From contig PFDS01000040.1 in assembly GCA_002772605.1 (NCBI GenBank), positions 14,862 through 78,861 of the forward strand: DNA of 64,000 nt, read 5' to 3'. Under the pieces are notes generated by a model. The model was not told the origin of the DNA and did not search any database. It saw only the letters and a list, made by a program, of their open reading frames with translations. This document shows positions 49,182-54,427 of the stretch, one piece after another (position 1 is the stretch's first letter; the number at the start of each line of letters is the position of its first letter). Source of the DNA: Candidatus Peregrinibacteria bacterium CG10_big_fil_rev_8_21_14_0_10_49_16 (GTDB taxonomy: Bacteria > Patescibacteriota > Gracilibacteria > Peribacterales > Peribacteraceae). The translations under genes and the position numbers were made by a program.

Positions 49182-51815
49182 TTACTTCTTGGCTGCCGTA
49201 CTGCGTTTTTTGGGCTGTTTGGCTTCTTGTTTGAGTTCTTCAACTTCTTCCGCACGCTGCTCCTTCGCCGCCTCTTCCACCGCCTTCTCCGCCTCAGGAT
49301 CGGCAAGCACAACACTCATACTGGCCACTTTATCCTTTGCTTTCAACCGCATGACAATGACGCCCTGCGTTGCACGACCGCGCGATGGAATGTCTGCAAG
49401 ATCCATGCGAATCGCCTGTCCATTCTTGCTCAAGCAGAGCAAGTCTCCTTTTGAATCATCCAGAAGCACACACCCTCCGACAATTTTGCCTGTCTTCACA
49501 GTGAGTTGCGCAGCTTTGACACCAGTGCCTCCGCGCCCCTGCAGACGGTACTGGCCAACGGGCGTCATCTTGCCAAGGCCGTTCTCCATCACCACAAGCA
49601 CCCGATGCGTTCCCAATCCCTTGCTAATTGCGCCCGCTTCCACCACATAATCCGAACCCGCTAACTTAATGCCGCGCACGCCCGCCGCAGCACGCCCCAT
49701 GGCACGCACATCGTCTTCTTCAAAACGAATGGCCTTGCCTTCGTGCGTGACCAGAAGGATTTCGTCTTTTCCCGTAGTCGTAACCACCCAACGGAGTTCA
49801 TCGCCTTCGGGAAGCTTCTGCGCAATAAGTCCGCTGCGGCGAATATTCTCGAACTCCGTACTATCCGTACGCTTCACCAGACCCTTCCGGGTGACAAGGC
49901 ACAGATACTTCGCACCGACAAAATCCGTACGGAGAATGGCCGAGACACGCTCCTCGGGTTTGAGCTGTAAGAGATTCACAATCGCCTGTCCACGCGCCGT
50001 GCGTCCTGCTTGAGGAAGTTCGTACACCGGAAAGCGGAAGACACGACCGGTATTGGTAAAGAAGAGCAGCTCATCATGATTCATAACATGCAGCAACGAG
50101 AGCACTTCATCATCTTCGCGAATTTCCATACCTTTTACTCCTTTTCCACCACGGTGTTGCGCACGGAACTGCATGGGACTCAAACGCTTCACATATCCAC
50201 TGCGCGTAAGTGTCACGATCATCGGTGCATTGGGAATGGTGTCCTTCGCACTAAACTCCCCGGCGGCAGCCGGAACAACTGTTGTGAGCCGTGCATCTCC
50301 GTAGGTTTCGCGGAGAACACCGAGCTCGTCGGTAAATACTTTGTCGATCTTCTTTGGATCCTTCAAAATCACTTCGCACTCCGCAATGAATTTGAGCTTT
50401 TCCTTGAGTTCGTCTTCCACTTTCTTTCGTTCCAATCCAGCAAGGGTTTGTAAGCGCATTTCGAGAATGGCCTTCGCCTGAATTTCTGTCAGTTTGAATT
50501 TCTTCATGAGTTGCTCACCGGCCACCTCTTTCGTTGCACTCTTCTTGATTGTCTCCACAACTGCATCAATGTTATCGAGTGCTTTTTTGAGACCCTCCAG
50601 AATATGCGCACGTTCTTTCGCACGATCACGGTCAAACGTAATGCGACGAACAATGACCGTGCGTCGATGGTTGATGAAAATTTGGAGAAGTTCCTGCACA
50701 TTCATGAGCTGCGGCTGCAATCCGTCACGCAGTGCAATCATGTTGTACCCAAAACTCGTTTGCAGATCGGTGTGACGGAACAGGAGATTGAGCACCTTCT
50801 GGGGGTAGGCATCTTTCTTCAGTTCGATAATCACACGAATGCCATCACGATCAGACTCATCACGAATATCCGAAATTCCCTGGATGACTTTGTCCTGCAC
50901 CAGCCGCGCCATCTTCTCCACCATTGTGGCCTTATTGACCTGATAGGGAATTTCAGAAATACGAATGTGAAAACGGTTCCCACTCGTCTCTTCGATTTCC
51001 GCCTTCCCCCGCATCACCACCGAGCCGCGCCCGGTGAGGTACGCCTGCTTCAGCGCCTTCTTATCATACACGAAACCTCCTGTTGGAAAGTCAGGACCTT
51101 TAATAAACTTCAGCAAATCTTCCACGGACGCCTCGGGATTCTCAACAAGGTGTAAGACAGCATCGATGAGTTCGTTGAGGTTGTGCGGCGGAATGTTCGT
51201 CGCCATTCCTACGGCGATACCCACGGTTCCGTTTAAGAGCAGGCCCGGCACTTTTGCAGGAAGGACCGTCGGCTCCTTGCGCATTTCATCGTAGTTGGGG
51301 CGGAAATCCACTGTATCCTTCTCAATATCCTGCAGAAGTTCTTCCGTGATCTTCTTCATGCGCGCTTCGGTGTATCGCATCGCTGCAGGACTGTCGCCAT
51401 CTATGGACCCGAAGTTCCCCTGCCCCTCCACAAAAGCGTAACGCATCGAGAACTGCTGTGCCATGCGCACAAGAGCCTCATAAACCGGAACGTCGCCATG
51501 CGGGTGGTAATTACCAATCACGTCTCCGACGATCTTCGCGCACTTACGATACTTCGCCGTATGACGCAGGCCCAGTTCGTGCATGCCGTAGAGAATGCGG
51601 CGATGCACGGGTTTCAAGCCATCGCGCGCATCCGGAAGCGCACGCGACACGATCACACTCATCGCATAGGCCAGGTAACTCTCTTCCATCTCTGCCACAA
51701 TCGGCCGCGGCTGAATGCGGCCAATACTGCTCAATGTCTCTCCTCCTTCTCCGCCTTTCGGCGCAGCAGAAGACTCCTCCCTGCCTGCATCTGAATCGTT
51801 TTTTTTCTTTGGCAT
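49182..51815 (-). CDS. gyrA: DNA gyrase subunit A
   Basis: [28 protein letters not shown], with the active-site tyrosine in [11 protein letters not shown]-terminal beta-pinwheel repeats and a K/E tail. Confidence 0.93.
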
Positions 51816-51867
51816 AGTGTAGTAGCAAGAGTGTAGCGGAAGGGAGGAAGAGAGAAAAGAGAGAAAA

Positions 51868-51902
51868 GTGTGTCACACTGAGCCTGTCGAAGTGCGACAC
51901 AC
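51868..51902. repeat. REP-like hairpin element (GTCAYMCTGAGCC family)
   Basis: GTGTGTCACAC-TGAGCCTGTCGAA-GTGCGACACAC (11 bp stem with one mismatch). It shares a 16-mer with 40795-40810. Confidence 0.75.
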
Positions 51903-51909
51903 TACAAAA

Positions 51910-51933
51910 GGGACTGTCTGGACAGACAGTCCC
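51910..51933 (-). terminator. rho-independent terminator after GC-island gene A
   Basis: GGGACTGTCTG-NN-CAGACAGTCCC is a perfect 11 bp stem, followed on the minus strand by TTTTG. A second hairpin, CGCAACC-TTCG-GGTTGCG, lies at 51939-51956. Confidence 0.65.
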
Positions 51934-51984
51934 CTTGTCGCAACCCGAAGGTTGCGAAATTGTTGCAATGGACCGATACGGTGG

Positions 51985-52773
51985 TTAACCGACATAGTCC
52001 TCGCTGCGAGCCGGCGTTTCGTCGGCGGCCTCGTCGGCTTCGACACTGTCGAAGTCGGGGTCGGCCTGGGCATCCCGATGGGCACGAATCTCCGCAGCCT
52101 CTTCTTCCGTGACGCCCGTCTGGTACGGTTGCAGCTCATGGTAATTGCCGCAAACCGGGCACCAGCCCATCTTGGGTTCGGCGTCGTCGTCGTCATCATC
52201 GGAAATGCCCGCCTGTGCGCGATGCCACTCCGCCTGCCGTTGCCGCTCCGCATCCTCGGCCGGCGACCGGCCGATCGGATAGAGGGAAGCACCGACCAGT
52301 GGCTCGACATCGTCGTCAGCGAGTTCGGTGATCTCCTCTCGTCCGTCCCCATCGGGGTTGCGAACGACCACGACTTTTACCATTCGCGGCTGCTCGTCAC
52401 CGCCACCGAAGAGGTCGGAGAGGCTGAGAATCTGCAGACCCCCGCCACCGGACTGGGCCTTGCGCATCAGCGTGGCCATGGGATCCTCCGGCCGCTCCTC
52501 GACGGTTCCGACCAGGAACTCCCGAGGCCCCCGGTAGATCGCCACGGCACCGTTGTCGGGAAGCGGATTGCCGTCGATGATGCCCTCCGTGAGGAAGTGA
52601 TATTCCTGCCGGAAGATGGCGCCGACCGGCGGTTCCAGATCACCCGGACGCACGTTGGCCTCCGGCAACTCCACCGTACTGATGGAGCCCTGGAACCCGA
52701 AGTACGCCATGAGAACCTTTCGCTGACCGTTGATCGTGACAGCATCACCCGTGCGAACGTTTTGCGTCGCCAT
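51985..52773 (-). CDS. GC-island protein A, acidic, unknown function (262 aa)
   Basis: AGGAG lies 9 nt before the ATG at 52773. Third codon positions are G/C-rich. The product contains GWCPVCGNYHE, DDDDDD and an acidic tail. No family recognised. Confidence 0.65.
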   Translation of the reverse strand: MATQNVRTGDAVTINGQRKVLMAYFGFQGSISTVELPEANVRPGDLEPPVGAIFRQEYHFLTEGIIDGNPLPDNGAVAIYRGPREFLVGTVEERPEDPMATLMRKAQSGGGGLQILSLSDLFGGGDEQPRMVKVVVVRNPDGDGREEITELADDDVEPLVGASLYPIGRSPAEDAERQRQAEWHRAQAGISDDDDDDAEPKMGWCPVCGNYHELQPYQTGVTEEEAAEIRAHRDAQADPDFDSVEADEAADETPARSEDYVG

Positions 52774-52892
52774 GAGAAATTTCTCCTGTTGAAAATGTCC
52801 ATTGCAAAAGATCAAGCCCGGCAAACGCTGCCGGGCCCGTTCCTCCGCGATTCGCGAATGTGTGGACCCTGGCACGCGCCAGGACTTGGGAG

Positions 52893-52921
52893 AGGATAAG
52901 GATAGCATTGACAAAAGTCAA
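52893..52921 (-). promoter_or_regulatory. sigma70-like promoter for gene A, overlapped by a palindrome
   Basis: Minus strand: TTGACT-N17-TATCCT in an AT-rich patch. The palindrome TTGACAAAAGTCAA (52908-52921) covers the -35 box. Confidence 0.45.
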
Positions 52922-53009
52922 ATGTATTTTATGTAAATATTTTTAAACATATGGAAAGGACCACTCCTTGTGAGAGTGGCCCTTCGTTGTTTCGCGCGGT
53001 GAATCTCGA

Positions 53010-53216
53010 TCAGTTGTGGTACGTGCCGCAATTGGGGCAGAGCGGCAGCCCCTCCTCATTGTACGGGGGCAGGTCCACCGTCACGTCACTGTCGGCCAGC
53101 AACTCCGGCGGAACCGGGATGTCGGTCTGGACCAGACGGACCAGAACGACGCCCGGCGCGACCTCGTCGAGCTTGAGGGAAGTGATACGGAGGACGGGGG
53201 TGGCGTTGTTCGCCAT
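53010..53216 (-). CDS. GC-island protein B, unknown function (68 aa)
   Basis: AAGGAG lies 8 nt before the ATG at 53216. The product ends in LCPNCGTYHN. No family recognised. Confidence 0.6.
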   Translation of the reverse strand: MANNATPVLRITSLKLDEVAPGVVLVRLVQTDIPVPPELLADSDVTVDLPPYNEEGLPLCPNCGTYHN

Positions 53217-53322
53217 GTTCGAAACTCCTTCAGTTGAGATTCGTGCGAAAGAACTTTTCCCAGCGTACATAGCCGGGAGCTCCCTCGCACTGTGCGAGAC
53301 AGTCCCAGAAACTGGGATGGAA

Positions 53323-53351
53323 ATAATACTTAATTTTTAACCTACTGTCAA
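53323..53351 (-). promoter_or_regulatory. near-consensus sigma70 promoter for gene B
   Basis: Minus strand: TTGACA (53346-53351), 17 nt spacer, TATTAT (53323-53328). Confidence 0.6.
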
Positions 53352-53410
53352 GCAGGCCAACGCGGTGTACGCATTGGCCTGTTTTTGCATGGTTTTTGCC
53401 CCTTTTGCAT

Positions 53411-53614
53411 TTAGCGGGTGTAGGCCTCATGGATGACGTCATCCACCTCGCGTAGCGGTGGCGATTCCAGCCACAGCGGCTGCTCGGTCACCACAATGCG
53501 CAAGATGAGGACAAAGGACAGTTCCAGACCGTCCTCCCCTCCCTTCCGCTCCGCTTTTCGCGGATCGCCTTTCATGGATGACGCCAAAAGGCCACTCAGA
53601 AGTCGCATCTGCAT
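53411..53614 (-). CDS. GC-island protein C, unknown function (67 aa)
   Basis: AAGGAGA lies 9 nt before the ATG at 53614. Only the 3-prime part of track ORF 53411..54034 is kept, because the rest is antisense to rsmI. Confidence 0.45.
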   Translation of the reverse strand: MQMRLLSGLLASSMKGDPRKAERKGGEDGLELSFVLILRIVVTEQPLWLESPPLREVDDVIHEAYTR

Positions 53615-53755
53615 ACTCTTCAGTCTCCTTGAGAACCATGCGAAAGAACGTGGCTTAGACACCTCGTCAAACCACCCTCTTCCGTCTAAACCGCCACTCA
53701 GTGTGTGAAGAGTTCGCTGCAAGTCAAGGGTCAAAAGGAGTATTCTTCTAAATAC

Positions 53756-54427
53756 ATGCTTTCCATCGTCTCCACCCCTATCGGCAATCTCGGTGACATC
53801 ACACTGCGCGCCCTTGAAACACTGAAGGAATGTGATGCCATCGTGTGTGAAGATACGCGAGTCACGGGAAAACTCCTCCAGATGCTGGATCTCCCGAAGA
53901 AGGAACTCATCAGCCTGCACGGGTATTCCGACACGAAGAAAATCAATGCCATCCTCAAGCGACTCGCAGAAGGAGCACATCTTGCTCTCGTCTCCGACGC
54001 CGGCACACCATGCATCAGTGATCCGGGATATCAACTAGTGAGTGTCGCCCTTCGACAGGGTGACACTCATCAAGTCGAAGTCATCCCCGGACCTTCCGCA
54101 TTCCTTGCTGCCCTCTCCGCATCAGGCCTCCCCATCAATCAATTTCTCTACCTCGGATTTCTTCCATTGAAGAAAGGACGTCAAACACTTCTTGCATCAT
54201 TCACAGAAGAGAAACGCACGATTGTCTTCTACGAATCCGTCCATCGCATAGAAAAAACACTTCGCGAACTCGTGGGCGCACTGCGTGATCAACCCAACCG
54301 TGACATCGTCATCTGTCGTGAACTGACAAAAATGCACGAAGAAATTCTTCGCACAACGGTTGCGGAACTTGCGAGTATTTCTCTTACACAAAAAGGAGAA
54401 TTCGTCATTGTCATTGGAGCAGTGTAG
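53756..54427 (+). CDS. rsmI: 16S rRNA (cytidine1402-2-prime-O)-methyltransferase RsmI
   Basis: MLSIVSTPIGNLGDITLRALETL, DAGTPCISDPG. Confidence 0.88.
   Translation: MLSIVSTPIGNLGDITLRALETLKECDAIVCEDTRVTGKLLQMLDLPKKELISLHGYSDTKKINAILKRLAEGAHLALVSDAGTPCISDPGYQLVSVALRQGDTHQVEVIPGPSAFLAALSASGLPINQFLYLGFLPLKKGRQTLLASFTEEKRTIVFYESVHRIEKTLRELVGALRDQPNRDIVICRELTKMHEEILRTTVAELASISLTQKGEFVIVIGAV

Follow-up and report, generated by a model that had tools for sequence, protein, structure and literature searches.

Why do two acidic proteins that hardly resemble each other carry the same half zinc-ribbon motif within one short insert between two core genes? The question arises in Candidatus Peregrinibacteria bacterium CG10_big_fil_rev_8_21_14_0_10_49_16, whose relatives, Candidatus Peribacteria and Peregrinibacteria, are groundwater bacteria of the Candidate Phyla Radiation (CPR). 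The window analyzed here is a 64,000-nucleotide (nt) part of its contig PFDS01000040.1 (positions 14,862 to 78,861; C55 in our numbering) and belongs to a genome of 0.83 Mb that is 93% complete. The two proteins are A (51985..52773, minus strand; 262 amino acids (aa)), the most divergent member of a family seemingly confined to Peribacteria, and B (53010..53216, minus strand; 68 aa), an orphan with a GC content at third codon positions (GC3) of 0.87. Their isoelectric points (pI) of 4.24 and 4.16 bear out the acidity pointed out in a previous, sequence-only reading of this DNA. We find that the shared motif is genuine and not due to chance, and that its set of metal ligands is incomplete. In the interpretation that we favor, and to which we give about an even chance, it is a Cys2-His 'knuckle', a beta-hairpin module that would bind a metal, likely zinc, with a fourth ligand from a carboxylate, from water or in trans.

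On the minus strand, the motif reads CPVCGNYH in A (52138-52161, residues 205-212) and CPNCGTYH in B (53016-53039, residues 60-67). In B it is followed by an asparagine and the stop codon, and the protein ends in LCPNCGTYHN (residues 60-68, CPNCGTYHN, are encoded by 53013-53039). Mapping of the open reading frame (ORF) list onto the sequence gave exactly the positions named in the sequence-only reading (52138-52161 and 53013-53039), and its statement that each protein has a single CxxC was likewise right: A and B contain two cysteines each, all of them within the motif. In the six-frame translation of the 828-kb genome, the pattern CP.CG.YH has two matches, only those in A and B, which are 878 nt apart; 0.007 matches were expected. 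A BLASTP comparison of A with B returned the motif as the sole alignment (E 8e-4), and the observed local score was reached by 17 of 5000 shuffles of B. Six of eight identities between the two motifs were reached by 2.4% of shuffles; because both proteins are compositionally biased, a raw count of this size is not rare, and the pairwise evidence taken alone is therefore moderate.

Outside the motif the two proteins are dissimilar, as had been claimed. With the motif removed, the local scores of B against 15 of the 16 members of the A family stayed within 1.3 standard deviations of shuffled sequences; the sole outlier was P0019 (z 2.96), whose score was reached by 2 of 200 shuffles. Alignment of B and the A family with hhalign covered only 10 columns. 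At the DNA level, the motif-coding segments of A and B are 78% identical over 23 nt (repeat family D4), and the flanking DNA of B shows no similarity to A beyond these 23 nt. We also considered B as a truncated paralog of A and rejected this origin, given the shuffle-like scores against nearly all members and the 10 hhalign columns.

In a word-based search A matched only itself. A full HMMER scan with a follow-up profile search recovered about 16 relatives of 177-267 aa, and genome G041 holds one further relative. A matched the family profile with an E-value of 7.2e-57 (the profile includes A itself), and phmmer started from A alone retrieved family members at 1e-9 to 1e-3. A is therefore a member of a rare, unannotated acidic family and not an orphan. 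The proteins are all strongly acidic (pI 4.1-4.6) and share a core of about 160 aa, in which FLRGRVV is followed by DGTEVGIPL.D.DVPPP.GASPYAVGESPEE; a variable acidic tail comes next. We defined the family by this ~160-aa core, with FLRG(R)xV plus D(G)xE..I.L.D.D..PP.GAS.Y.VGESPEE, and the acidic tail. The A protein of the window falls within this definition and departs from the other members at several near-invariant positions (FLVGTV, PIGRSPAED).

Searches of the family against Pfam, NCBIfam, PHROG and PADLOC gave nothing but noise, and neither the family profile against PDB sequences nor the model of A in Foldseek against PDB and BFVD produced a match at E <= 0.001. Within the host family, 4 of 200 genomes and 3 of 84 genera encode a member. 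Among 400 genomes sampled class-wide nothing convincing was detected apart from one marginal match in genome G369, and IMG/VR contained no match. As far as these samples tell, the A family is restricted to Candidatus Peribacteria. The marginal match is a 220-aa ORF (L040:1354-2016, minus strand) from another family of the same class, with an E-value of 1.7e-4 over 44 residues; it covers the D.D..PP....GESP segment (DGDIFSTTLNPDDVQPPRMAMHFTQGESP) and may be a very remote relative or due to chance. Two giant proteins that matched in the representative search (P0008, P0009) were discarded as relatives, being acidic low-complexity repeats without CxxC. Pairwise ratios of non-synonymous to synonymous substitution rates (dN/dS) of 0.31-0.48 indicate that the A family is under moderate purifying selection.

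Six of the 17 family members (window A, P0003, P0006, P0007, P0010 and P0015) carry the motif in the form C-P-x-C-x3(4)-H-[P/A/E]-[L/V]-x-[P/S]. Conservation in homologs, which had been proposed as a check on the motif, held for C, P, C and H, all invariant in the six carriers, and not for the window's G and Y, which are common only to A and B of this genome. The spacing is C-x2-C-x3-H, with x4 in P0010, and in most carriers a helix starting (G/A)(L/V)T.(E/D)E comes next after the motif. The cores of the carriers are about 30-57% identical, and their tails are hardly alignable. Five carriers form one clade (support 88/86); the position of window A, on a very long branch, is uncertain. Cysteines are rare in the family (0-5 per protein), the single histidine of P0015 is that of the motif, and none of the carriers has a fourth Cys or His that is conserved. 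Its retention along one branch of the A family makes it probable that the motif is functional, and the alignments portray it as a conserved but facultative module whose ligand set is intrinsically incomplete.

The AlphaFold2 (AF2) model of A, computed from a 16-sequence alignment (predicted local distance difference test (pLDDT) 73, predicted template-modelling score (pTM) 0.60), places the motif on a beta hairpin with strands 201-204 and 211-214 (pLDDT about 80). The hairpin is preceded by helices 171-187/192-195 and followed by helix 223-236; the flanking helices measure about 15-25 residues. Further short conserved motifs are present in the tails of P0007, P0015 and P0016, namely ADPEWDEDFDD, EIxxIRxDxKxGVYD and GGGHP[V/T][I/L]; ADPDFD at residues about 238-246 of window A is the counterpart of the first. 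The A-family tail looks like a chain of short interaction motifs.

B is known only from this species, and the protein is identical across independent assemblies. We found no homolog of B in 5.8 billion proteins and no relative in phage or plasmid records; neither B nor C, the third ORF of the insert, has a relative in the six-frame translations of the 200 family genomes. PADLOC gave no match for B and C, Pfam, NCBIfam and PHROG returned only noise, and the model of B had no match in PDB by Foldseek at E <= 0.001. The eight motif residues of B show 6/8 identities to A, 5/8 to P0003 and 4/8 to the other carriers. This 6/8 match to the resident A, together with the DNA identity of 78%, points to a likely origin of the B motif from A, or to co-evolution with A, either at the locus or in an unsampled high-GC donor. 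Near motif-bearing A homologs, no second motif ORF was found in L036, L031 (10 kb), L037 or L030; the homologs without a B-like neighbour (P0007, P0006, P0010, P0015) cover both locus types at which the family occurs. Because motif-bearing A homologs occur without a B-like gene, pairing with B cannot be the ancestral role of the module.

In the favored interpretation, A and B would each carry one copy of the Cys2-His knuckle. The motif of A would be the local form of the C-P-x-C-x3-4-H-[P/A/E]-[L/V] module of its clade, situated in the variable C-terminal tail, and B would have this module at the very end of its chain, spelled more like that of the resident A than like that of any other carrier. 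Bound metal would stabilise the hairpin within an otherwise disordered acidic tail. With no fourth Cys or His conserved among the carriers, the site would be completed by water or a carboxylate close by, or in trans, through a partner protein or a second knuckle.

Several observations weigh against a metal-binding knuckle in both proteins. Eleven of the 17 family members have no CxxC; five of these have GGGHP[V/T][I/L] at the place aligned with the His, and the remaining non-carriers have neither form. A metal site must therefore be dispensable for whatever the core domain does. Furthermore, window A sits on a very long tree branch and could therefore be decaying, and the motif of B, which is without homologs, is thus backed by no conservation. 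The pairwise similarity of A and B is by itself only moderately significant (p about 0.003), and the helices flanking the motif of A are, from their sequence, polar and not coiled-coil-like.

Different roles for the shared motif have to be weighed on this basis. A zinc hook or clasp in trans could serve self-association of A-family proteins, with the B microprotein of this species capping or re-pairing A through the shared metal, which we consider unlikely. A heteromer of A and B, as suggested in the sequence-only reading, would have two half-sites that hold one metal ion like the zinc clasp or the Rad50 hook, and the small B would then cap or regulate the A motif. It would account for the presence of both genes within the same 1.9-kb insert, for the motif as the only Cys2His in each protein and for a G and a Y common only to A and B, and zinc sites formed in trans by single CxxC hairpins exist (PMC5093744). 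It is nevertheless doubtful, as either type of locus has motif-bearing A homologs that lack B, the two genes have promoters of their own with a terminator in between, and two Cys2His sets would present six ligands to a four-coordinate ion. The motif could also, in line with the other idea of the sequence-only reading, be a short docking peptide, by which A and B bind or compete for one common partner. This would suit the A-family tails, which look disordered and acidic and contain EIxxIRxDxKxGVYD, GGGHP[V/T][I/L] and ADPEWDEDFDD, and also the persistence of the His-Pro-Leu/Val part in members that lost the Cys pair. However, an invariant Cys-x2-Cys with a His typically marks metal ligation when the protein is otherwise poor in Cys, and B stops right after the His, without the HP[LV]xP part, and we therefore hold a docking peptide to be improbable.

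The absence of any detected homolog raises the further possibility that B is a non-functional, young or spurious ORF whose motif was left behind when the 3' portion of A was partially duplicated. High-GC DNA easily yields open frames on both strands, and in another sample an IS30-like transposase gene removes the promoter-like site of B. On the other hand, the codon-position GC of B (.68/.41/.87 for positions 1/2/3) is strongly coding-like, and the ORF is framed by signals: a ribosome-binding site with AAGGAG-N8-ATG, a promoter-like site TTGACA-17-TATTAT with 11/12 matches (53323..53351, minus strand) and a terminator-like hairpin (52955..52985, minus strand). Single-sequence AF2 gave a best model with a pLDDT of 80.8 (the other four models reached 53-70), and the flanking DNA is unlike A beyond the 23 nt. 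A defunct B is decidedly unlikely in the light of these features. CPYC and CPHC are active sites of thiol-disulfide oxidoreductases, and the CPxC spelling resembles those of glutaredoxin and DsbA. A redox-active dithiol of this kind is very hard to reconcile with our results, because there is no thioredoxin fold and no thioredoxin-like match in Pfam, the prediction puts the motif on a beta hairpin instead of the N-terminus of a helix, and a conserved His at +3/+4 suits metal ligation better. Among these alternatives, the Cys2-His knuckle remains the interpretation that we prefer.

Gene A starts with the ATG at 52773, and its ribosome-binding site, AGGAG, lies 9 nt further upstream. An alternative TTG upstream, at 52914, would extend the protein to 309 aa; the homolog alignments and the position of AGGAG favor the 262-aa form. 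The codon-position GC of A is.74/.44/.75 (positions 1/2/3). A promoter-like site TTGACT-17-TATCCT with 9/12 matches is located at 52893..52921 (minus strand), and a hairpin (inverted repeat I5; 51907..51936, minus strand) follows the stop codon, between A and gyrA. Based on codon-position GC, ribosome-binding sites, promoter-like sites and hairpins after the stop, the frames of A and B look coding. As the terminator-like hairpin after B lies between the two genes, they are separate transcription units. Terminator-like hairpins are also found inside the 5' leaders of A (52813-52839) and B (53258-53278), on the minus strand and downstream of the promoter-like sites; they could be attenuators. 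Gene C (53411..53614, minus strand) is a 67-aa orphan ORF without Cys (pI 5.3), which public assemblies annotate as a gene. It has a codon-position GC of.68/.38/.71 and AAGGAG upstream.

The three genes lie in the order C, B, A, all on the minus strand, in a high-GC insert or 'island' (51839..53755), which is flanked by the core genes gyrA (49182..51815, minus strand) and rsmI (TP_methylase; 53756..54427, plus strand; start set by alignment to relatives). The same-genus genome G001 has an empty site (L022): homology to the window ends at 51838 and restarts at 53756, and only 22 bp lie between the divergent start codons of gyrA and rsmI (L022:6345-6372). This gap in homology, compared with the 22-bp spacer, identifies the island as an insert of 1,917 bp. 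Since the spacer in G001 is so short, the promoters of gyrA and rsmI must lie inside the neighbouring coding regions. With a GC content of 0.60-0.675, where the genome averages 0.49 and its 99.9th percentile is 0.62, the insert is the strongest outlier in the genome; GC3 is 0.75 for A and 0.87 for B, with a genomic value of 0.514 +/- 0.071. The same DNA recurs in independent assemblies, identical in ENA and Logan and as a 99.4% identical copy in a JGI sample, and the insert is thus not a misassembly.

Two origins of the insert were considered and not supported. Import by recombination together with flanking core-gene DNA is not supported by the gyrA of the window, which is nearest to same-genus gyrA over its entire length and contains no imported tract. 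For a phage or plasmid origin, there was no A-family match in IMG/VR and no match of B in phage or plasmid records. In the JGI sample 3300025142 (L004:1-238), which contains A and B with 99.4% DNA identity, a junction is present at window position 53307. The DNA upstream of the B leader is replaced there by the start of the IS30-like transposase gene (MAHHHFTAAERLEISLLKKKGYSNRAIANELG...), by which the promoter-like site of B at 53323-53351 is removed, and the contig ends there; the window's own genome contains no copy of this transposase. A dispersed element resembling repetitive extragenic palindromes (REP-like; TCACAC(AC)TGAG core) has copies in inverted orientation near both ends of the insert: one at 51867-51903, about 30 bp in from the left end, and one at 53693-53706, about 50 bp in from the right end. 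Elsewhere in the same genome (G000), other ORFs with outlier GC3 (0.77-0.87) are found at C2:1420-1914 (plus strand), C42:10732-11782 and C46:16317-17007. Several of these have signal-peptide-like N-termini; the outlier ORFs may represent additional genes of foreign or accessory origin.

The position between rsmI and gyrA is the usual one in the A family. In at least seven independent lineages (L023, L025, L026, L036, G019, G041 and the window itself), the A gene is divergent from rsmI and located about 160-180 nt upstream of gyrA. A second locus type is represented by the sister pair P0006 (genome G143) and P0010, where the A-family gene and a gene for a small membrane protein are divergently oriented; the gene that follows in G143 codes for a TrpR-like protein. 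The adjacency to gyrA is striking and may be positional only. A gyrase-linked function of A was considered as well; it is weakened by the second conserved locus away from gyrA and by the hairpin between A and gyrA. The A-family gene has a GC3 of 0.78-0.87, among the highest at each locus, with 0.60-0.69 for full-length neighbours; only a partial gyrA fragment in L025 (0.86) is higher than the A-family gene. Nearly all copies of the family are on contigs of 1-2 kb (L024, L025, L026, L030, L036, L037, L006), which suggests that metagenome assemblies break routinely at the A locus, through strain heterogeneity or the jump in composition.

What these data add is an apparently CPR-specific acidic family of 180-270 aa that has not been described before, with a variant single-knuckle candidate metal site. 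Its locus in the window is an accessory gene set inserted within what is a 22-bp core-gene spacer in a relative, and its composition is far from that of the host. If the motif binds zinc in trans, it would be a very small portable module for hetero- or homodimerisation among the few characterised intermolecular zinc sites (the Rad50 hook and the CD4/Lck clasp), and would offer a first handle on a family specific to Candidatus Peribacteria, whose lineage-specific genes are almost entirely uncharacterised. If A and B indeed share the metal, B would be a bacterial microprotein regulator that acts via an intermolecular zinc site.

Several known metal-binding elements invite comparison. In zinc ribbons, two beta hairpins carry one knuckle each (2 x CxxC/H) and together form one Zn(Cys/His)4 site, and the retroviral CCHC knuckle has the form C-x2-C-x4-H-x4-C. 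Like these, the motif of A and B has a CxxC turn, predicted on a beta hairpin, that would give two ligands and a nearby His that would give the third. Unlike these, A and B have no second knuckle or fourth Cys, and the spacing to the His is x3-4 and not x4. Each protein has a single CxxC, the carriers have no Cys beyond the His, and B ends one residue after it; Pfam zinc-ribbon matches were not above noise, with zf-DNL and zf-Tbcl at E about 0.02 in one or two members. The zinc-binding anti-sigma (ZAS) motif, H-x3-C-x2-C, lies in a helical anti-sigma domain and has its fourth ligand upstream. Here, the order is reversed (C-x2-C-x3-H) and the motif is on a hairpin instead of a helix, and no anti-sigma match in Pfam was above threshold. 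YacG, a small zinc-finger inhibitor of gyrase with a CPxCG knuckle and a full Cys4 site, was considered only for the adjacency of A and gyrA. It shares with A and B a small or acidic protein, the CPxCG knuckle and a link to gyrase, whereas A and B lack a full Cys4 and have no sequence or fold similarity to it. In the CD4/Lck zinc clasp, two different proteins each give two Cys to one zinc ion.

The sequence-only reading had been reminded of haloarchaeal CPxCG zinc-finger proteins (Brz family), which are small and acidic like A and B and have the same CPxCG spelling. By the published definition, these CPxCG-related fingers have two Cys/His patterns 7-40 residues apart, each with a gap of 2-3 residues between its two C/H, and one of the patterns or both are CPxCG-like (Tarasov et al., 2008, PMC2253796). 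A and B lie outside this two-pattern definition, as they have one pattern plus a lone His. A contains only C205/C208 and the single residues H183, H212 and H232, with no second C/H pair within 40 residues, and B contains no more than two Cys and a single His. The host is a CPR bacterium and not an archaeon, and a sequence relation of A or B to the haloarchaeal fingers was not found.

The zinc hook of Rad50/SbcC offers another comparison, and is a precedent for a lone CPxCG hairpin whose zinc site is completed in trans. In P. furiosus Rad50, two hairpins with C444-P445-V446-C447-G448 share one Zn(Cys)4 (PMC5093744). As in A, a single CP(V)CG sits on a small beta hairpin with helices on either side, and one molecule does not provide the full ligand set; the CPVCG spelling of A is identical. 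A single conserved CxxC on a beta hairpin was indeed found here, in the AF2 hairpin of A and in the C-P-x-C of six members. The remainder of the proteins is different: unlike Rad50/SbcC, A and B lack both an ABC ATPase and the long antiparallel coiled coil, and measure 68-267 aa with a beta-rich core. We detected no ATPase motifs and no match in Pfam, PDB or Foldseek. Furthermore, the conserved His after the CxxC is not a ligand in the hook, and B has no helix after the motif. The resemblance to the Rad50 hook is thus a likeness in the possible way of working, and not membership in the hook family.

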